Positions 21,973-30,680 of a DNA stretch of 33,994 bases are shown here, piece after piece. The notes under the pieces were generated by a model. The model searched no databases. It saw nothing but the letters and a program-made list of their open reading frames with translations, and was not told where the DNA came from. The DNA is taken from IMG/VR virus record IMGVR_UViG_2802429241_000004, one strand, 5' to 3'. The stretch's first letter is position 1. The number at the start of each line of letters is the position of its first letter. Made by a program: the position numbers and the translations under genes. The DNA comes from a virus. Taxonomy: Duplodnaviria; Heunggongvirae; Uroviricota; Caudoviricetes.

Positions 21973-22145
21973 TGTCAGGAGTCCTGAATAGTGATTAGAG
22001 GAGTCACATGTCGGCATCAGTTTCCCGACGATACGCATCCTCCGCCATCAGTCCCGGATGGCTTATCACTGACACAACAGCACCTTAGCGAATCGCGGGG
22101 CGCGACTCAGTAGCCTTGCCGTGTATTCATCACGGCGAGGTATTC

Positions 22146-23918
22146 ATGACCATCACCACAGACACCACTCTTTTACACGACCCGCGTCGTCAGGCGGCGC
22201 TGCTGTACTGGCAGGGATTTTCCGTGCCGCAGATTGCCGCCATGTTGCAGATGAAACGCCCGACGGTGCAGAGCTGGAAACAGCGCGACGGCTGGGACAG
22301 CGTTGCCCCCATCAGCCGTGTCGAAATGAGTCTGGAAGCGCGACTGACCCAGCTCATCATCAAACCGCAGAAAACCGGCGGTGACTTCAAGGAAATTGAC
22401 CTGCTGGGACGCCAGATTGAACGACTGGCGCGGGTAAATCGTTACAGCCAGACCGGCAACGAGGCAGACCTTAATCCGAACGTCGCTAACCGCAACAAAG
22501 GCGGGCGGCGCAAACCGAAAAAAAATTTTTTCAGTGACGAGGCCATCGAAAAGCTGGAGCAGATTTTCTTTGAGCAGTCTTTCGACTATCAGTTGCACTG
22601 GTATCGCGCCGGGCTTGAGCACCGCATCCGCGATATCCTGAAATCCCGCCAGATTGGCGCGACGTTTTATTTTTCCCGCGAGGCGCTGCTGCGCGCCCTG
22701 AAAACCGGTCATAACCAGATTTTTCTGTCGGCCAGTAAAACGCAGGCGTATGTGTTCCGCGAATACATCATCGCCTTTGCCCGTCTGGTTGACGTTGACC
22801 TGACCGGTGACCCGATTGTCCTGGGCAATAACGGCGCAAAACTGATTTTTCTCGGCACCAACTCCAACACCGCACAGAGCCATAACGGCGACCTGTACGT
22901 CGACGAGATTTTCTGGATCCCGAATTTTCAGGTACTGCGTAAGGTGGCATCAGGTATGGCCTCACAGAGCCACCTGCGCTCGACCTATTTCTCCACCCCG
23001 TCCACGCTGGCGCACGACGCCTACCCGTTCTGGTCGGGTGAACTGTTTAACCGGGGACGCGCCAGCGCCGCCGAACGCGTGGAAATCGACGTCAGTCATA
23101 ACGCCCTTGCCGGTGGGCTTCTCTGTGCGGACGGCCAGTGGCGGCAGATTGTCACCATTGAGGACGCCCTGAAAGGCGGCTGCACGCTGTTCGACATTGA
23201 GCAGCTCAAACGTGAAAACAGCGCCGACGATTTTAAAAACCTGTTCATGTGTGAATTTGTTGACGACAAGGCGTCGGTGTTCCCGTTCGAGGAGCTGCAA
23301 CGCTGCATGGTCGACACGCTGGAAGAATGGGAAGACTATGCGCCGTTTGCCGCCAATCCGTTCGGCTCACGTCCGGTATGGATTGGTTACGACCCGTCAC
23401 ACCGTGGCGACAGCGCCGGATGCGTGGTGCTGGCACCGCCGGTGGTGGCCGGTGGCAAATTCAGAATACTTGAGCGTCACCAGTGGAAAGGCATGGACTT
23501 TGCCACTCAGGCTGAATCCATCCGCAAACTCACCGGAAAATACAACGTCGAATACATCGGTATTGATGCCACCGGCCTCGGTGTCGGCGTGTTCCAGCTC
23601 GTGCGCTCGTTCTATCCCGCCGCGCGCGACATCCGCTACACGCCGGAAATGAAAACCGCAATGGTGCTCAAGGCAAAAGACGTTATCCGCCGTGGCTGTC
23701 TGGAATATGACGTCAGCGCCACCGACATCACCAGCTCGTTTATGGCTATCCGCAAGACCATGACCAGCAGCGGACGCAGCGCCACCTATGAGGCCAGCCG
23801 CAGCGAGGAAGCCAGCCACGCCGACCTCGCCTGGGCAACCATGCACGCCCTGTTAAATGAGCCACTCACCGCCGGTATCAGCACTCCGCTGACATCCACC
23901 ATTCTGGAGTTTTACTGA
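22146..23918 (+). CDS. P: terminase large (ATPase) subunit P (590 aa)
   Basis: Start at MTITTDTTLLHDPRRQAALLYWQG (ATG at 22146); plus-strand, divergent from O as in P2. Confidence 0.85.
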   Translation: MTITTDTTLLHDPRRQAALLYWQGFSVPQIAAMLQMKRPTVQSWKQRDGWDSVAPISRVEMSLEARLTQLIIKPQKTGGDFKEIDLLGRQIERLARVNRYSQTGNEADLNPNVANRNKGGRRKPKKNFFSDEAIEKLEQIFFEQSFDYQLHWYRAGLEHRIRDILKSRQIGATFYFSREALLRALKTGHNQIFLSASKTQAYVFREYIIAFARLVDVDLTGDPIVLGNNGAKLIFLGTNSNTAQSHNGDLYVDEIFWIPNFQVLRKVASGMASQSHLRSTYFSTPSTLAHDAYPFWSGELFNRGRASAAERVEIDVSHNALAGGLLCADGQWRQIVTIEDALKGGCTLFDIEQLKRENSADDFKNLFMCEFVDDKASVFPFEELQRCMVDTLEEWEDYAPFAANPFGSRPVWIGYDPSHRGDSAGCVVLAPPVVAGGKFRILERHQWKGMDFATQAESIRKLTGKYNVEYIGIDATGLGVGVFQLVRSFYPAARDIRYTPEMKTAMVLKAKDVIRRGCLEYDVSATDITSSFMAIRKTMTSSGRSATYEASRSEEASHADLAWATMHALLNEPLTAGISTPLTSTILEFY

Positions 23919-24952
23919 TGAGCAAGAAAAAAGGGAAAACACCGCGACCTGCGGCAAAAACAATCACCGCCAGCGCCCCGAAAATGGAGGCATTCACCTT
24001 TGGCGAGCCGGTGCCGGTACTCGACCGCCGTGACATTCTGGATTATGTCGAGTGCATCAGTAACGGCAGATGGTATGAGCCACCGGTCAGCTTTACCGGT
24101 CTGGCAAAAAGCCTGCGTGCTGCCGTGCATCACAGCTCACCGATTTACGTCAAACGTAATATTCTGGCCTCGACATTTATCCCGCATCCGTGGCTTTCCC
24201 AGCAGGATTTCAGCCGCTTTGTGCTGGATTTTCTGGTGTTCGGTAATGCGTTTCTGGAAAAGCGTTACAGCACCACCGGTAAGGTCATCAGACTGGAAAC
24301 CTCACCGGCAAAATATACCCGCCGTGGCGTGGAGGAGGATGTTTACTGGTGGGTGCCGTCCTTCAACGAGCCGACAGCCTTCACGCCCGGCTCCGTGTTT
24401 CACCTGCTGGAGCCGGATATTAATCAGGAGCTGTACGGCCTGCCGGAATATCTCAGCGCCCTTAACTCTGCCTGGCTGAATGAGTCGGCCACGCTGTTCC
24501 GCCGCAAGTATTACGAAAACGGCGCTCATGCCGGATACATTATGTACGTCACCGATGCCGTGCAGGATCGCAACGATATCGAAATGCTTCGCGAAAACAT
24601 GGTCAAGTCGAAAGGCCGCAACAACTTTAAAAATCTGTTTCTCTATGCCCCACAGGGGAAAGCCGACGGTATTAAAATTATCCCCCTCAGTGAAGTGGCA
24701 ACGAAGGACGATTTTTTTAATATCAAAAAAGCCAGCGCCGCTGACCTGCTGGACGCGCACCGCATCCCCTTTCAGTTGATGGGCGGCAAGCCGGAGAACG
24801 TCGGATCGCTGGGTGATATTGAGAAAGTGGCAAAGGTCTTTGTCCGCAATGAGCTTATCCCGTTACAGGACAGGATTCGGGAAATAAACGACTGGCTCGG
24901 TCAGGAGGTCATCCGCTTTAAAAACTACTCACTGGACACTGACAACGGCTGA
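23918..24952 (+). CDS. Q: portal protein Q
   Basis: 344-aa protein starting MSKKKGKTPRPAAKT, overlapping the P stop (ATGA), last gene before cos. Confidence 0.85.
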   Translation: MSKKKGKTPRPAAKTITASAPKMEAFTFGEPVPVLDRRDILDYVECISNGRWYEPPVSFTGLAKSLRAAVHHSSPIYVKRNILASTFIPHPWLSQQDFSRFVLDFLVFGNAFLEKRYSTTGKVIRLETSPAKYTRRGVEEDVYWWVPSFNEPTAFTPGSVFHLLEPDINQELYGLPEYLSALNSAWLNESATLFRRKYYENGAHAGYIMYVTDAVQDRNDIEMLRENMVKSKGRNNFKNLFLYAPQGKADGIKIIPLSEVATKDDFFNIKKASAADLLDAHRIPFQLMGGKPENVGSLGDIEKVAKVFVRNELIPLQDRIREINDWLGQEVIRFKNYSLDTDNG

Positions 24953-24957
24953 ACATC

Positions 24958-24979
24958 GCCGCCTGCGGGCGGCTTTTTT
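24958..24979 (+). terminator. intrinsic terminator after Q (GCCGCC-tgcg-GGCGGC followed by T6)
   Basis: Perfect GC stem 24958-24973 followed by TTTTTT at 24974-24979, 6 bp after the Q stop. Confidence 0.7.
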
Positions 24980-25121
24980 ACACCCCGTCATCACGCCCTC
25001 ACACGCTCACCTCCACGCAAAACAGCCCGCAGACAAACCAACGCCCCGGCACACAATCTAAACGCCATCACGACGCGCTCAGACGCTGAAAAAATAAAAT
25101 CAGCACCACCGCCAGCGCGCA

Positions 25122-25140
25122 GTGCTTTCCCCGCCTCGCC
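25122..25140. other. cos cohesive-end site (19 nt)
   Basis: GTGCTTTCCCCGCCTCGCC is the reverse complement of the P2 cohesive end as I recall it (GGCGAGGCGGGGAAAGCAC); located just after Q as expected. Confidence 0.6.
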
Positions 25141-25289
25141 CGCCCGCTTCATGAAGCGGTTTGAATGCAGTTGTATACCGACGCAGACTTCCTGCCAGTT
25201 CTAGCTACTCATAACAAAAAAAAACATTACAGATGAATGCAAAATCATGCAACTAATGAAGGCGTACAGGCTAGGTGAGAAAATAAATG

Positions 25290-26090
25290 CTATTTCATCA
25301 GTCCTATAAAAGCTGCTGTCATGCTACCCAATGCACCAATAGCAGCAAATAACGTTGCCCAAAACATGCTTTTTTGGCTACGAATATTCTCATTATATCG
25401 TTGTTCTTCATTATTGAAGTGATTTAACGTATTAATTGCTTTTCCAGTGGGCTTATAACCATCTCGAGTCTTTGAAATGTCCCCACTCTCTACAAGGGAA
25501 TCCAGACATAAGCGAAGTTCTTTTATGAGTCGAGAATAATCATCATGGTAGATCCATAAACGTCCTGCCACATCATTCATAATTAGAGTCTCACTGAATG
25601 GTTTTTCCCCTTGCTGCTCTCGATAAATTCTGACAATTGCAGCCAATACCGTCATTACATCGGTTATCTCCTGCTTGCGTTGTCGATACAAATACTTCTC
25701 ACGACTTAGCTTTTTATTTTGACGATTCGCTATTCTTCTAAATCTAAGCACATTAAAAAAAGATAAGTCGTCCAATGAGTCAAACTTCAATTCATGCGCA
25801 TGATAATAATAAATTCCAGAAAAGGAATTTGATGTAAGTCGTTCTGGTTTAAGAATTGTATCAATATTGAAAGTTTTATTCTGATGATTCCACTTCTTAA
25901 CCTTTATAATTCCGTTTGAATAACTATCAAAAAGATAGTCATTACCCTCGTCATCCTTAATGTAAACGGAATACATATCGTAATGAATGGCACTCTCATA
26001 CATTAAACTAATTTTGCCATTTTCAGGAGTCTTCTTTGACTCAAAAACTTTTAGAAACTTTACAACATCAACTTTATTTTTATACCTCAT
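25290..26090 (-). CDS. hypothetical tail-anchored membrane protein (266 aa, single C-terminal TM helix); candidate effector of the RT system
   Basis: AT-rich ORF directly downstream of the RT gene on the same strand; C-terminus MFWATLFAAIGALGSMTAAFIGLMK is a predicted TM helix; N-terminal domain has no motif I recognise. Confidence 0.6.
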   Translation of the reverse strand: MRYKNKVDVVKFLKVFESKKTPENGKISLMYESAIHYDMYSVYIKDDEGNDYLFDSYSNGIIKVKKWNHQNKTFNIDTILKPERLTSNSFSGIYYYHAHELKFDSLDDLSFFNVLRFRRIANRQNKKLSREKYLYRQRKQEITDVMTVLAAIVRIYREQQGEKPFSETLIMNDVAGRLWIYHDDYSRLIKELRLCLDSLVESGDISKTRDGYKPTGKAINTLNHFNNEEQRYNENIRSQKSMFWATLFAAIGALGSMTAAFIGLMK

Positions 26091-26255
26091 ACATTCAGCC
26101 TTGACTGTAAACCACCATATTAAATTATTGCACTAACGACTCGTACCACTTATTGTTCAACCCAGTCAGAATTGAAAGCAAACTTCTGCACTAACTGGGT
26201 TACCATCATAATATATCGATACTAATAAAATCCGATATCATTATATTTTAGTGTA

Positions 26256-27206
26256 TTAAACCGATGTATTTGCTTTCAACGTCAATACTTTCGATCTGTA
26301 ACGTTTTTCAATAACCCCCATTGAATATAAACGACCAAATAATTTCTTTGCTGTTCTTGTATCTTTAGCTTGTTCTACATCTTTTATTATTTTCCAAAGC
26401 TCTATTTCTCTAGCCATAAGATAATGCTGTTCGTTCCTAACCTTTAAGCTATCCCCAAATACTATAACTCCTGTCACCAGTTTAGGCTTATCCCCAGCAT
26501 ATAATTTCGTTTTAGTTGGATGCATCACGTGTCCATGCTTATTAATAATCTTACGAATCACGCTGCAAAACAATCGATTTACATTATCTCCAGAAAAAGT
26601 AAGATCATCGACATAAACTGTCATTTTCACACGAAACTTCTCACAAAGTTGATTCATTTCATCAAACATTCTGGAATTTGCAAAATATGCTAATGGCATA
26701 CTAATCCGACTACCCGTTGGCAATCGTTCATGACAGGTACATATATGAGATAAAATATCAGCCACATCTGGCGACATTTTCATTATTGAGAAAAAGAAAG
26801 AAAATATCATTTCTCTTGTTGTTGACGGAAAAAAAGATTTAATATCTGTAGTCATCAACTTCTGATGATTGAGATGTGCTTTAGCATTTGTTATGTTAGA
26901 GCAACTTTTTTTACCAGAGTGCAAATACTCTGGCATAGCTATACGCAATAATAAACTCGCAATACGTGTATGCACTACATCTAATTTTTCTAAAGGCTTT
27001 TGTATTTTCCGTATTTTATTTTTTTTAGAAAGCTGTTCAAAAATAGAGTAATTACCCTCATCCCTCTTCAAAGCTGATAGATCATTGATACTAACGCAGA
27101 GCAAGCTAGCCAACTTTTTTTTACTTTTAAGTTTATAAAGTGGCGAATCCGTAATAGGATAAGATTTATTTTTAGTTGAAACCTTCAGTTTAATCCTTTT
27201 TTTCAT
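26256..27206 (-). CDS. retron-type reverse transcriptase (316 aa)
   Basis: RT motifs read directly from the translation: NAKAH (NAxxH), DIKSFFPS, LPTGSRISMPLAYFA (QG..SP block), YVDD catalytic box, LVTGVIV (retron VTG). Block order parallels the Ec86 RT as I recall it. Confidence 0.8.
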   Translation of the reverse strand: MKKRIKLKVSTKNKSYPITDSPLYKLKSKKKLASLLCVSINDLSALKRDEGNYSIFEQLSKKNKIRKIQKPLEKLDVVHTRIASLLLRIAMPEYLHSGKKSCSNITNAKAHLNHQKLMTTDIKSFFPSTTREMIFSFFFSIMKMSPDVADILSHICTCHERLPTGSRISMPLAYFANSRMFDEMNQLCEKFRVKMTVYVDDLTFSGDNVNRLFCSVIRKIINKHGHVMHPTKTKLYAGDKPKLVTGVIVFGDSLKVRNEQHYLMAREIELWKIIKDVEQAKDTRTAKKLFGRLYSMGVIEKRYRSKVLTLKANTSV

Positions 27207-27504
27207 TTCTTTTACTTACCCACTCTAGTATATCCAGAACTTTCCCTGCCAGTTTTAAACGTAAACTTTTGGATAACCGTCCTTGTGTCCCTAATGATTC
27301 TGAAAAAAAGACTAAAGAGGATACTGGCATGTCGAAATGGGAAGCATAACGCTGTAAAATATCAATCGACGGCACCCATAGTCCGCTTTCAATCTCTACT
27401 ATTCTGCTTTTTGGAATACCTAAAGATGATGATAAGTCAACTATTGATTCTTTATGGTATTGCCTTATTAAACGAAGGGCTTTATGCAACATAGGCAACT
27501 CCAT
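27190..27504 (-). CDS. XRE/Cro-type helix-turn-helix protein (104 aa)
   Basis: Classic HTH segment ESIVDLSSSLGIPKSRIVEIESGLWVPSIDILQRYASHFDMP; its stop overlaps the RT start by 17 nt. Confidence 0.65.
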   Translation of the reverse strand: MELPMLHKALRLIRQYHKESIVDLSSSLGIPKSRIVEIESGLWVPSIDILQRYASHFDMPVSSLVFFSESLGTQGRLSKSLRLKLAGKVLDILEWVSKRNEKKD

Positions 27505-27528
27505 CTTGTTGAAACTAGGGAGGACGCA

Positions 27529-27684
27529 TTACTCATCTCCCCCTTCAAAGAAGTCAACTGCGCGAGTGATCCAATAAAGTAGTCTAATAAGCCACTTAAT
27601 TACACCCCAAGCGTTAGGAGTCTTCTTTTTCCGGTTTAACTTGTTTTGCGCCTGCTGTTCGTTGGTTACTTTATCATTTTTCAT
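27529..27684 (-). CDS. small hypothetical protein (51 aa) with amphipathic or hydrophobic core
   Basis: Internal ATG at 27682-27684 preceded by a consensus AAGGAG Shine-Dalgarno with 6-nt spacer; product MKNDKVTNEQQAQNKLNRKKKTPNAWGVIKWLIRLLYWITRAVDFFEGGDE. The 97-aa upstream extension is less likely. Confidence 0.4.
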   Translation of the reverse strand: MKNDKVTNEQQAQNKLNRKKKTPNAWGVIKWLIRLLYWITRAVDFFEGGDE

Positions 27685-27786
27685 GACCTGCTCCTTATGT
27701 CCACGGTGTGCAAACGATATGTCTGCTCCAACACCATGGCTCGCCCTCATAAGGATGAGATTGAACAGCACCAGCTCCCTGCTCCA

Positions 27787-27813
27787 CGAACCCTTTGTCG
27801 CCCAAAGGGTTCG
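27787..27813 (-). other. stable hairpin (11-bp perfect stem CGAACCCTTTG / CAAAGGGTTCG, 5-nt loop) within a locally GC-richer structured segment; possible ncRNA element
   Basis: Perfect inverted repeat read directly from the sequence; no flanking T-tract on either strand, so it is not a simple terminator. Confidence 0.35.
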
Positions 27814-28126
27814 AATACCCATACGCTATACCGCTTGAATCAGAGACTCCTGTCGCTGACAGAGGCGTTGCGCGGGGTAAATGTTAGAAAGCATTAGCTT
27901 TCCACGGGCAATAAATACCCAATTGATGGCGATTTATCTCACTAACTAACCAATGATTGAATCATACCAAGTAAACCGTTGTATTTGATCTCTCCTTATA
28001 TAATTTTTTGTTATTAATCAATATAAATAAATAACAAAAAGAAATATAGCTAATTTTCATCCGTCTCATCACAATAAATATCAACAAATCAAGAATATCG
28101 TTTGATTATCTAGTCTTTCCAATTCA

Positions 28127-30415
28127 TTAAAATAAAAACAATGCTTCATCTTCAATTCCCGGCCAAACATCAGCAACCGGATACATGAATTTTTTCCCGT
28201 CATAATTTACGGTCGCGCCACGCGCCAGCGCCTCAAGCTCCCATCGCTGAGGGCTGATACCGTTCTGAGCAAGGTCAACGCGGATACGGGTAATTTGCAT
28301 TCGTTCCGACCTGGTCAGCCTGGCTGATGGCGCTATTTCATGCGGTTTTAACGGGCTTCCGTCTCTTTGCTGACGGTTTGGTGTTCTCAGTCCGTGTTTT
28401 AATGCACCCCTGAGCGCCCTCACGACCTCCGGGTCACTCCATTCGATGACACCGTCATCAACCAGATTAAGCACTGCTGCGGCGTGTTCAGAAGGCGTGG
28501 GAGCCGGTGACGAAGTATCACCACCGGTGAGCTTTCCACAGTTATTGACAGGACTCCGAGGCGCGGCGATGCCGCTTTTTAAAGTCAAAGGCTCAACGAC
28601 CGGAACTTTCGGCACAATGCGCCAGTCCGTCGTTCTGGTGATATGAATATGACGCGCGCCGAGATGCGGCGCGTAAATGCCGACCACTCTCTCGACTTCT
28701 TCCTCGTACTCGTTCACGTCATCCGACGGGCTACGGGCGACCCTGACAGTCTGACAATCGCGCGGGACATTTGCCCCACCCTGCGCGCTGATATACAGCG
28801 CAAAATCGCCACTGTCTGCGGCGGCGCGTGCAGCCTCCACGCGTTCGTCAAATTCATCAGCAATGCTGACGCCGCGAGGCAATTTACGTAGCTCACGGTA
28901 AGCTCCCATTGTCGGCAGGCCAACCGTTTTAAATTGCGGGATGCGCCACGTTGACGCCCATGCGGTAACAGCCGCCGCAGTATCTTTCAGCGGTCTGCCG
29001 GTATCGTTATCGAGCTGACCATCCAGTGCATAGCCGTCGATATTTTTTGAAATGTATTTCGCGATATATCCCGCAGCACCGCCCCGGTTAAGGTGTTTTG
29101 CCTGAAAACGGTTTCGCGCGGCTCCTCTTTCGTCGCCATCCTCTTTGAGCGCATAGCGACGCATGATTTCGATAATCTGGTTACGCTGGCGTGGATTACA
29201 AAAAAGCATCATATGCCAGTGCGGCGTTCCGTCGTGGTGTGGCTCGACGACTCGCAAACCGTAGACCTGTAAATCATTATCCTTGAATGCCGTGCGCATC
29301 AGGCTCCAGATACGGCAGAGATAACGCTGCGCATCCTTTGGATTAAATGCCTCATCATTCCAGCCGTGATTAAGCTGGACGGTTTTATTTTCGCCTTTTC
29401 CAACCTGACGTGTCGGGTGATACTTTGACGGCGCGGTAAGAGTGATAAACATCCCCACATCACCCTCTGAGGCGGCGTAACGCTCAATACCGGCAATGGT
29501 GTTCATCAGCTCCATCCGGCGAATTTCAGGATTAGAAATACTGCCCATCACCTTACTGATAAGGTCGATGCGCTCGCCGGTTTCCCTGTTTTCAAGGTCA
29601 CACGATTTAAGAAACTCCAGATTTGCCTGGCGGCGCGCACGCACATCACGAATGGCATGTTTACTGGCATAAGGAGAACGGTCTTTATTGACCTCCCCGA
29701 CAGCAATCAGTAACGCCTCATGCCAGCGCATACGCTGGCCTTTAAGCTGATGAGTCCACCACTCATCGTTAAACAGACGGGCAATGGCAGAATATGCCTG
29801 CCTCGTGGTTATCTGTCCTTTACGGTATTTTTTCCAGTAGAGCGGGGAAATATTGAAAGCACGTGCAGCGCCAGCAACATGACCATAGAGGTGAGCCTGC
29901 GCCTCATCCGTAAACAGCGATTCTTTTTCGCCATGCGCATCCACCCAGGCATCGCTGAGTTCCTCATACATCATGAAAAGCTGCGATGAGATACGGGCGG
30001 CAAACTTTTTCAGCTCCTTGTCATTCATTCCCGGCAGGCGCGCATACTGGTCGCGCTCTGCCAGAAACAGCAACGACGCGTCGGTGTTCATTTCATGGCG
30101 CTGATTCACGCGCTCAATGCGCGGCCATAAACGACGCTGAAAAGTGGATGTGAGGAAATAAAACCCGTGCACCGGGCTTTTATTGCGCCGGATGTAGTCA
30201 TAGCGTGAAGTAAACAGCGAACGCAAAAAGTAAGGCAGGCGGTTAATCGTGGATAAAACACCTTGCACCTGACGCATCTCGTCACGTGTAAGGGGTCTTT
30301 CGCGCCCGACGGCCTCGCGTGGCGCGTTCCATGCATAAGCACCGGTAAACGTCTTACCGGTGCCTGCGGCAAATGCTGACGGAGGGACAAAATGCCCGGA
30401 GGCTTTAACGGCCAT
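28127..30415 (-). CDS. A: replication initiation protein A (rolling-circle nickase)
   Basis: Large protein matching P2 gpA in size and position; preferred start MAVKASGHFVPP at 30413-30415 (alternative upstream start 30457). Confidence 0.85.
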   Translation of the reverse strand: MAVKASGHFVPPSAFAAGTGKTFTGAYAWNAPREAVGRERPLTRDEMRQVQGVLSTINRLPYFLRSLFTSRYDYIRRNKSPVHGFYFLTSTFQRRLWPRIERVNQRHEMNTDASLLFLAERDQYARLPGMNDKELKKFAARISSQLFMMYEELSDAWVDAHGEKESLFTDEAQAHLYGHVAGAARAFNISPLYWKKYRKGQITTRQAYSAIARLFNDEWWTHQLKGQRMRWHEALLIAVGEVNKDRSPYASKHAIRDVRARRQANLEFLKSCDLENRETGERIDLISKVMGSISNPEIRRMELMNTIAGIERYAASEGDVGMFITLTAPSKYHPTRQVGKGENKTVQLNHGWNDEAFNPKDAQRYLCRIWSLMRTAFKDNDLQVYGLRVVEPHHDGTPHWHMMLFCNPRQRNQIIEIMRRYALKEDGDERGAARNRFQAKHLNRGGAAGYIAKYISKNIDGYALDGQLDNDTGRPLKDTAAAVTAWASTWRIPQFKTVGLPTMGAYRELRKLPRGVSIADEFDERVEAARAAADSGDFALYISAQGGANVPRDCQTVRVARSPSDDVNEYEEEVERVVGIYAPHLGARHIHITRTTDWRIVPKVPVVEPLTLKSGIAAPRSPVNNCGKLTGGDTSSPAPTPSEHAAAVLNLVDDGVIEWSDPEVVRALRGALKHGLRTPNRQQRDGSPLKPHEIAPSARLTRSERMQITRIRVDLAQNGISPQRWELEALARGATVNYDGKKFMYPVADVWPGIEDEALFLF

Positions 30416-30680
30416 GTGAGCCAAAAGCCTCTGAACAACGCTTGCTGAGTTGCTCAACCTGAGCGTTTAAATCAGCAAAAGATTTTGCGTTTCCGGTCAG
30501 AATATCGTGATGCATCATGCCGGAAACGAGCTGGCTTAATTTCGGGTAATAACCAACCACCGCCAGCCATTCCTGACCGGCGTTTTTACCGCTTTCCGCT
30601 CTTTTTTTCTCGTGGAGAATAAACTGAAAGCTGTCACTGGTAACGACATAACGTTCGCCAATTTCGATACGAATACTCAT
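30405..30680 (-). CDS. P2 orf83-like hypothetical protein (91 aa)
   Basis: Small ORF immediately upstream of A in the early operon. Confidence 0.6.
   Translation of the reverse strand: MSIRIEIGERYVVTSDSFQFILHEKKRAESGKNAGQEWLAVVGYYPKLSQLVSGMMHHDILTGNAKSFADLNAQVEQLSKRCSEAFGSHGR

Follow-up and report, generated by a model that had tools for sequence, protein, structure and literature searches.

The window analyzed here is a 33,994-nt stretch of virus DNA (Caudoviricetes; IMG/VR record IMGVR_UViG_2802429241_000004), and its reverse transcriptase (RT) gene (26256..27206, minus strand) is probably the polymerase of a complete and apparently intact Type VI retron. This retron would be of the Vpa2/Eco12-like kind with a short small protein (SP), carried as cargo in the hotspot of a P2-like phage and working in the manner of Vpa2. 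The four retron parts appear to form one unit on the minus strand, in which a promoter is followed by a hybrid RNA (hyRNA) of ~450 nt containing the SP toxin gene, then by a helix-turn-helix (HTH) gene, and finally by the RT gene. A first-pass annotation, made from the sequence alone, had described the RT as a retron RT. That identification stands, but the element is not limited to the RT: the HTH gene, the 51-aa toxin gene, and the structured RNA also belong to it, such that the retron occupies 26256..~27969. Family membership, gene order, motifs, RNA architecture, sequestration of the ribosome binding site (RBS), and repeats were all computed here.

The RT open reading frame (ORF) has 316 codons, an ATG start, and zero internal stops. 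All motif positions given in the first-pass annotation agree with those recomputed: NAKAH at aa 107-111 (nt 26874-26888), DIKSFFPS at aa 121-128 (nt 26823-26846), LPTGSRISMPLAYFA at aa 162-176 (nt 26679-26723), YVDD at aa 198-201 (nt 26604-26615), and LVTGVIV at aa 243-249 (nt 26460-26480), with VTG at aa 244-246. In an alignment of 31 homologs with identity down to 47%, residues N107, A108, H111, D121, Y198, V199, D200, D201, T245, and G246 are invariant. The motifs are not chance occurrences, because they are invariant among these homologs and the whole protein fits a retron RT profile. The retron RT signatures of Mestre et al. (2020; PMC7736814) are NAXXH in region X, which lies between RT2 and RT3, and VTG in region Y (RT7). 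The annotation had relied upon this same pair, and the window RT has both motifs as well as YxDD. The profile searches against retron RT clades that the annotation had proposed were run, and the best match is PADLOC RT_VI (353.1 bits, E = 2.4e-106), with RT residues 21-306 aligned to profile positions 1-278 of 279. The runner-up, RT_III-A, reached 151.3 bits. By this profile test, the protein belongs to the Type VI RTs (RT clade 3 of Mestre et al., 2020). The best 25 PADLOC families listed for this protein are all retron RT models, and none of them is an Abi model. The NCBIfam retron models St85, TIR, and Ec67 gave below-cut-off matches only. Typing by these three models was dropped, as the scores are under the cut-offs and the models all represent retrons of other types.

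Structural databases lead to the same family. A search of PDB sequences gave 11 matches at E<=1e-3, each of them a retron RT; Ec86 is the best (E = 1.2e-12), and no Abi chain is among them. The alignment with the Ec86 RT is collinear (query 57-262 on chain 54-261), and the motifs are superposed in pairs (NAKAH/NATPH, DIKSFFPS/DLEDFFPS, YVDD/YADD, and VTG/VTG), which bears out the previously noted parallel in block order. Retron-Eco1/Ec86 (Type II-A; PDB 7v9u, 7xjg, and 8qbk) is thus the closest relative with a solved structure, and NAxxH, DxxxFFPS, LPxG, YxDD, and VTG occur in the same order in both proteins. However, Ec86 is a different type of retron. In Ec86, the effector role falls to a separate nucleoside deoxyribosyltransferase-like protein, and the multicopy single-stranded DNA (msDNA) is abundant and acts as an antitoxin, whereas the msDNA of Vpa2-like Type VI retrons acts as an activator. 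Ec86 is also described as an anti-phage system, one that reacts when RecBCD is interfered with (Millman 2020, cited in PMC9122126). Taken together, the profiles and motifs support the window protein as a genuine retron RT of Type VI.

A defense RT outside of the retrons, such as Abi-P2, a defense-associated RT (DRT/UG), or the RT of a group II intron or diversity-generating retroelement, is extremely improbable here. Such an identity would fit the location, given that Abi-P2 genes (P2-EC30 orf570 and P2-EC58 orf544) are RT-family defense genes in the same AT-rich variable P2 locus, and Pfam reports the generic RVT_1 domain alone (E = 6e-8). However, the Abi-P2 proteins have 544-570 aa (546 aa as purified; PMC9508834, PMC8632793), a C-terminal helical domain, no thumb, and a YRDD motif, whereas the window RT has 316 aa, YVDD, and no C-terminal helical domain. 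The annotation had correctly described Abi-P2 RTs as substantially longer, and its preference for a retron RT over Abi-P2 is upheld by the RT_VI profile, by the 25 best families listed, and by the PDB matches. The latter include retron RTs only, even though structures of Abi-P2 and AbiK have been solved (PMC9508834). No DRT/UG family model scored above its cut-off; the sole match, NCBIfam Drt3a, reached 23.8 bits against a cut-off of 200. Moreover, Abi-P2 carries out protein-primed, template-independent DNA synthesis and has no non-coding RNA, HTH, or SP, whereas the window RT has invariant NAxxH and VTG motifs and is accompanied by a cognate structured RNA with covariation.

Directly upstream of the RT gene is a Cro/C1-type HTH gene (27190..27504, minus strand; 100-104 aa). 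The likely start is the ATG at 27492, which gives a protein of 100 aa (RefSeq WP_016233352.1), with a 17-nt overlap between this gene and the start of the RT gene. The product matches PADLOC HTH_VI (E = 2.5e-31) over 91 of 92 profile positions and Pfam HTH_3 at E = 2.2e-4. Type VI retrons encode a Cro/C1-type HTH protein of 91-110 aa upstream of the RT gene or overlapping it, and the window protein agrees with this in length, class, and position. When counted from the RefSeq start, its R7 is the residue that was mutated (R7D) in Vpa2.

Further upstream is the SP gene (27529..27684, minus strand), with an AAGGAG RBS. It encodes a 51-aa small protein (MKNDKVTNEQQ...FFEGGDE), the predicted toxic effector, which is identical to RefSeq WP_016233353.1, a hypothetical protein annotated in an identical copy of the block. 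This protein matches phrog_15287 (function unknown; E = 1.1e-34), and homologs are found at the same place in 20+ loci. Three of its residues (K15, I39, and F45) match positions that were mutated in the SP of Vpa2. By analogy with that protein, the product at this locus may be toxic. The SP-HTH-RT order is kept in >20 loci from Escherichia, Klebsiella, Serratia-like bacteria, Acerihabitans, Vibrio, Xenorhabdus, Shewanella, Alteromonadaceae, and others. A longer 97-aa ORF (27529..27822, minus strand) was considered as the upstream gene and rejected, as it over-extends across the RNA, and the homologs conserve the 51-aa ORF with its strong RBS. In Peduovirus P22H1, a 393-nt gene annotated in RefSeq as a hypothetical protein (gp41; locus L124:3116-3508) covers the same stretch as the hyRNA and SP, and is likely a misannotated non-coding RNA plus SP.

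The SP gene is embedded in a predicted hyRNA of ~450 nt (27505..27954, minus strand), which includes an msr-msd-like non-coding part and the SP coding sequence. Both of its ends are predicted. The ~300 nt located 5' of SP have a GC content of 48%, compared with 23-40% in the surroundings, and the minimum free energy of the 486-nt hyRNA region has a z-score of -4.64 relative to shuffled sequences. Two alignments were used, namely A2 with 16 homologous regions and A3 with 21 diverse sequences. A2 has many invariant non-coding columns, and its RNAalifold consensus comprises 83 pairs, among which 36 have compensatory changes. In the helix cells of A2, 97.1% are paired, and none of 500 shuffles reached the observed values. 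When helix partners were slid by 1-3 columns as a control, pairing was 41-51% and the compensatory pairs numbered 7-14. In the window sequence, all 83 consensus pairs are canonical, as are all 85 in the version with the anti-Shine-Dalgarno (anti-SD) helix. The core helices persist in A3, with compensatory changes in 28 of 38 pairs. Furthermore, the hyRNA profile recovered full-length counterparts in 13 further, more distant loci and aligns end to end with Type VI loci of V. parahaemolyticus. Rfam returned no family for 24900-28300 (evalue mode); Rfam 15 has no entry for the Type VI RNA. At the 5' end, a putative extended -10 element (TGgTATGAT; 27961..27969, minus strand) was read from the sequence, with a transcription start predicted near 27954. 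The TGnTATGAT pattern is conserved among the enterobacterial homologs of A2. The sigma-70 and terminator scans returned nothing beyond the shuffle expectation and missed this element, such that its assignment is a reading of sequence and conservation.

The non-coding part (all coordinates below are on the minus strand) begins with two small hairpins. Both P1 (27921..27905) and P2 (GGAAAGC/GCUUUCU; 27903..27886) are 100% paired in A2, and 4 of 6 and 5 of 7 of their pairs, respectively, are changed on both sides in A3. These are followed by helix P3 (27816..27879), in which UACCC at 27879..27875 pairs with GGGUA at 27820..27816 around a hypervariable hairpin (27874..27821). In all 16 homologs of A2, the interval enclosed by P3 is a single long hairpin, with a size of 61-115 nt and sequences that are unrelated across lineages. 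This hairpin is a candidate msd stem-loop and may serve as the template of reverse transcription; the msd role is proposed because the msDNA of Vpa2 has been mapped to the long stem-loop in arm 1. The presence of a structured non-coding RNA with a variable long hairpin next to the RT is as expected for a retron. Hairpin P4 (27787..27813) has compensatory changes in 5 of 7 pairs and carries in its loop GGGCGAC (27803..27797), which is copy 1 of a direct repeat.

The remaining helices enclose the SP gene. The 5' arm of a long-range helix, UGGAGCAGGGAG (27775..27786), pairs with 27522..27510, just past the SP stop codon. This helix has 11 pairs, with 99.4% of cells paired and 4 compensatory pairs in A2, and it is retained in A3. 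Its 3' arm is part of a post-stop segment (27510..27528), of which the remainder (27528..27523) forms helix P8 with the SP codons at 27652..27647; in A3, all six P8 pairs are changed on both sides. Helix P5 is formed by UGCUGUUC (27763..27770) and the SP codons GAACAGCA (27660..27653). The arm containing the RBS and AUG of SP is closed by this helix, whose 8 pairs show 100% pairing with 5 compensatory changes in A2. One P5 pair occurs in A3 as GC in eight sequences, UA in seven, and AU in six.

Within this arm, the Shine-Dalgarno (SD) region of SP, CAUAAGGA (27692..27699), is sequestered by a complementary anti-SD segment, UCCUUAUG (27755..27748). The latter is followed by copy 2 of the repeat, GGGCGA at 27746..27741, and the whole element spans 27741..27755. 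As both strands are near-invariant in the enterobacterial sequences of A2, the anti-SD:SD helix was assessed by duplex analysis on 21 lineages. A duplex of 8-12 bp is found in 21 of 21 homologs, with lineage-specific complementary changes, and the mean energy is -11.6 kcal/mol with the own partner versus -8.05 across lineages. The P6 hairpin of the RNAalifold consensus was replaced by this helix; both fit the window sequence, and the two may alternate. All 21 sequences have GG[C/U]GA at both sites of the repeat, and the window copies (27803..27798 and 27746..27741) read GGGCGA. The window RNA thus has the features described for the Vpa2-like ("Large") lineage, with direct repeats in the msd loop and the riboregulator, and with a small SP gene that lies 5' of the HTH gene inside the hyRNA and has its RBS and AUG in a stem, SP toxicity being a prediction.

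Retron-Vpa2 is a Type VI retron of Vibrio parahaemolyticus with a 55-aa SP, a three-arm hyRNA, post-stop pairing, and a sequestered RBS (Zhang et al., bioRxiv 10.1101/2025.10.22.683967). In the riboregulator model of the same authors, one of two 7-nt direct repeats is in the msd loop and the other in the riboregulator. Retrons of this lineage accumulate msDNA only when triggered, which relieves the block on SP translation, and their defense depends on RT activity. The window locus has the same order of hyRNA (with SP), HTH, and RT. Its hyRNA similarly has three arms, back-pairing after the SP stop, the RBS in a stem, GGGCGA repeats of 6-7 nt, and a long variable hairpin at the position of the msDNA. 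The SPs differ in length (55 aa in Vpa2, 51 aa in the window) and have in common K15, I39, F45, and a C-terminal xGGD(E/T); HTH R7 is also common to both systems. For direct comparison, a V. parahaemolyticus locus (L167) was used. It encodes a 55-aa SP with K15, I39, F43, and F45 and an HTH protein with R7, and it was taken as Vpa2-like because the residues mutated in the preprint and the reported SP length match. The window hyRNA profile matches this locus over its whole length (E = 1.5e-25).

As the main alternative, the retron may be of Type VI but controlled as in Retron-Sen3 (Type VI, cl2075) of Salmonella enterica, which has constitutive single-stranded DNA (ssDNA) and post-translational control (Garcia-Rodriguez et al., bioRxiv 10.64898/2026.04.27.721009). 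In this case, ssDNA and SP would both be made constitutively, the HTH protein would act as a post-translational antitoxin, and inhibition of RecBCD by a phage would free the toxin independently of the ssDNA level. We consider this explanation rather unlikely. The two systems have much in common, including an enterobacterial host, the SP-HTH-RT order with the HTH gene overlapping or abutting the RT gene, and an SP gene that lies within a conserved, structured transcript and is bridged by long-range pairing. In addition, the HTH protein is required to keep SP harmless in both published systems. However, the cl2075 SPs have 79 aa (~75-79 aa as a class range) with an N-terminal extension of ~25 residues, whereas the window SP has 51 aa, is without the extension, and resembles the 55-aa SP of Vpa2 in the "Large" lineage. 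The Sen3 RT also belongs to a different RT subclade. Furthermore, the window hyRNA is homologous from end to end with those of the Vibrio Type VI loci, and both the anti-SD:SD lock and the GGGCGA repeats are retained. Finally, Eco12 from E. coli, which is phylogenetically related to Vpa2, gave no basal msDNA (bioRxiv 10.1101/2025.10.22.683967). The absence of the cl2075 extension and the presence of Vpa2-like features therefore group the window retron with Vpa2 and Eco12 rather than with Sen3, and the lineage and RNA features favor the Vpa2 mode of action over Sen3-type control.

Several observations weigh against a Vpa2-like retron at this locus or set it apart from Vpa2. Identity between the window RT and the V. 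parahaemolyticus RTs is just 53% (L167) and 58% (L168), the Vibrio SP has largely diverged in sequence from the window SP, and BLAST does not detect the similarity between the window SP and the 55-aa Vibrio SP. The variable hairpin is shorter in the window, with 54 nt between the P3 arms. The Vibrio loci have chromosomal contexts, whereas the window retron is in a P2-like prophage hotspot. The catalytic motif of Vpa2 is given as YADD in the preprint and that of the L167 locus reads YVDD, such that L167 may be a close relative of Vpa2 rather than Vpa2 itself. Eco12 was compared by its published description, and the window locus may be either the tested Retron-Eco12 or a relative of it. In addition, the mechanism varies within Type VI, as Sen3 illustrates, and sequence alone cannot decide among such variants; the case at this locus is one of sequence comparison.

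For the preferred Vpa2-like reading, we infer by analogy the dynamic steps, the ends of the msDNA, what triggers the system, and that SP is toxic. In uninfected cells, the RT, HTH protein, and hyRNA would form a complex in which the HTH protein restrains reverse transcription, and the host RecBCD would clear stray msDNA such that it is undetectable. With the SP RBS locked in the anti-SD:SD helix, no toxin would be made. An infecting phage would then produce recombination or anti-RecBCD proteins, such as lambda Red Beta/Exo, Gam, or their analogs, and msDNA copied from the variable hairpin and the P4 hairpin would accumulate. The 5' hairpin of the msDNA, a copy of P4, would carry the complement of GGGCGA in its loop and could pair with the second GGGCGA beside the anti-SD. 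This pairing would open the SD, SP would be translated, and growth would stop before the phage completes its cycle. The expected msDNA has ~90 nt, with a template at about 27787..27879, compared with 86 nt for the Vpa2 msDNA (bioRxiv 10.1101/2025.10.22.683967).

These considerations also affect how the retron may be recognized experimentally. Retrons in general produce msDNA that is primed from the 2'-OH of a branching G. The first-pass annotation took the absence of msDNA, upon expression of the RT with its flanks, as evidence against a retron. This reasoning is not valid for Type VI, as the msDNAs of Vpa2 and Eco12 are undetectable until triggered (bioRxiv 10.1101/2025.10.22.683967). Because neither shows msDNA at baseline, missing basal msDNA would wrongly reject the window retron.

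The kind of retron, the P2 locus, and the probable mechanism have all been published, and knowledge of retrons is unchanged by this locus. What the window may provide is a natural example, borne by an E. coli prophage, of a retron with inverted logic, in which msDNA would turn the toxin on and not off. The RNA elements of the proposed riboregulator are all present and backed by covariation, which would make this locus a convenient native system for the Vpa2 model. The RefSeq labels of its genes are just "reverse transcriptase family protein", "helix-turn-helix", and "hypothetical". In P2 itself, this locus is occupied by the old gene, which excludes lambda via Red and Gam (the Spi phenotype). 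A parallel may be drawn between old and this retron, as both would respond to the same phage functions, Red and Gam.

The retron is located between the gpA replication gene (28127..30457, minus strand) and the portal and terminase genes (23918..24952 and 22116..23918, plus strand). This site is the cos-proximal gpA-cos-gpQ defense hotspot of a P2-like E. coli prophage (PMC9122126). The GC content of the hotspot block is 33-40%, compared with 52% for the whole window. A 2931-nt block is 100% identical in E. coli 65COLEC and at least 98% identical in nine other complete genomes, such that the window allele is present in 10 of 5426 complete E. coli genomes. An inactive remnant, namely a decaying retron that is hitch-hiking in the prophage, would be consistent with this rarity, but we regard it as very improbable. 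The three ORFs are full-length, the catalytic and family-invariant residues are intact, and all predicted RNA pairs are canonical. In addition, the allele is conserved at >=98% across isolates from unrelated hosts and sources (human, poultry, frog, and wastewater).

A more common allele of the RNA-SP-HTH-RT unit, with ~79-82% identity, is present in ~90 further E. coli genomes (many of them O157:H7), in Klebsiella phages, and in Peduovirus P22H1. In these records, homology to the window ends at the RT stop codon. In O157:H7, where this allele (~82% DNA identity) is widespread in P2-like prophages (e.g., FRIK944, locus L002), other small genes, encoded on the opposite strand, come after it, and the RefSeq names are generic. 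The entries of Rousset et al. (2022) covered here include, in Table S5B, system 26, a "Type-VI retron" (HTH_37/RVT_1) with 132 occurrences in the P2 hotspot, and, in Table S5A, the O157:H7 RT WP_000746343 of the same RT family (PMC9122126). System 26 is at the same gpA-gpQ locus beside cos, and its HTH protein is clearly of the same family (MLHKALRLIRQYHKESIV...). It corresponds to the more common allele, with ~82% DNA identity to the window, and in those entries two proteins are catalogued with no mention of SP or the RNA. The window allele with its 266-aa neighbor was not found in the part of Table S5B that was covered. The possibility that the window represents the 65COLEC prophage itself was rejected, as the flanks are 96-99% identical and a ~1-kb gene is missing; the two are related prophages.

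The neighbor is a 266-aa gene of unknown function (25290..26090, minus strand), located on the same strand as the RT gene and 165 nt past the RT stop. Its product has no Pfam, NCBIfam, or PADLOC match and belongs to phrog_7611 (function unknown) only. The predicted structure is confident (pLDDT 82.5) and combines a beta domain with a winged-helix-like unit and a long helix at the C-terminal end, and the hydrophobic stretch at the C-terminus was read as a transmembrane (TM) segment. A Foldseek search of this model against PDB gave weak CRP/PrfA-like matches, none at E<=1e-3. In all 36 phage loci that encode this family, it is the last gene before cos. Among these loci, ~22 have a 243-aa partner and no retron, five have the gene directly after gpA, and in four, which all belong to the window lineage, it follows the retron. 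The 243-aa partner (phrog_3403, function unknown; N-terminal TM helix; e.g., L083:4138-4869, L125:2823-3554, and L128:3151-3882) and the 266-aa protein look like an uncharacterized two-gene module, and in the window the retron takes the place of the partner.

One explanation for this adjacency is that the membrane-anchored 266-aa protein is an extra effector or accessory factor in a four-protein variant of Type VI. It would be a modular component, driven elsewhere by the 243-aa partner, and the sub-variant would have arisen twice, in the P2 hotspot and in a conjugative element of Acerihabitans. In Acerihabitans arboris (NZ_WUBS01000011.1, L003:2738-5662), a Type VI retron with hyRNA, SP, and HTH has an RT that is 75% identical to the window RT. 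This retron is followed directly by a 37%-identical homolog of the 266-aa gene, inside a VirB8/CagX/TrbL conjugation cluster and not in a phage. In the window lineage, the shared strand, the short distance to the RT gene, and the conservation of the block at >=98% in 10 E. coli genomes and four IMG/VR contigs are also consistent with coupling. However, the ~90 E. coli genomes, Klebsiella phages, and Peduovirus P22H1 with the more common allele carry the retron without the 266-aa gene, and the family is mostly found with the unrelated 243-aa protein or, in five of the 36 loci, alone after gpA. The window copy is also closer to the retron-free copies (72% identity) than to the Acerihabitans copy (37%). 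Moreover, the published Type VI systems require just the hyRNA with SP, the HTH protein, and the RT. A fourth retron protein is thus improbable. A functional link could explain these two independent adjacencies, but so could the mere clustering of defense genes, and the 266-aa gene was treated as separate cargo and not as a member of the retron.

The 165-nt spacer between the two genes (26091..26255, minus strand) has imperfect inverted repeats, such as CCCAGTTAG...CTGACTGGG, and no T-rich terminator. Within this spacer, 26222..26133 shares 70% identity with the region that follows the RT gene in Klebsiella phage ST147-VIM1phi7.1, and the module junction is therefore placed close to the start codon of the 266-aa gene.

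Two minor features of the surrounding region were also observed. The ~1-kb gene of the 65COLEC prophage (L001:688-1745) that is missing from the window belongs to the phosphoadenosine-phosphosulfate-reductase family and lies just upstream of gpA. The window is without it at 30418..30424, which makes this the second site of variation in the early region. A small GC-rich ORF (24991..25152, minus strand) occupies part of the cos region, with the portal gene on one side and the hotspot on the other. Its counterpart in 65COLEC (147 nt) is annotated in RefSeq as a "vacuolating cytotoxin domain-containing protein", and this ORF is probably a spurious call.

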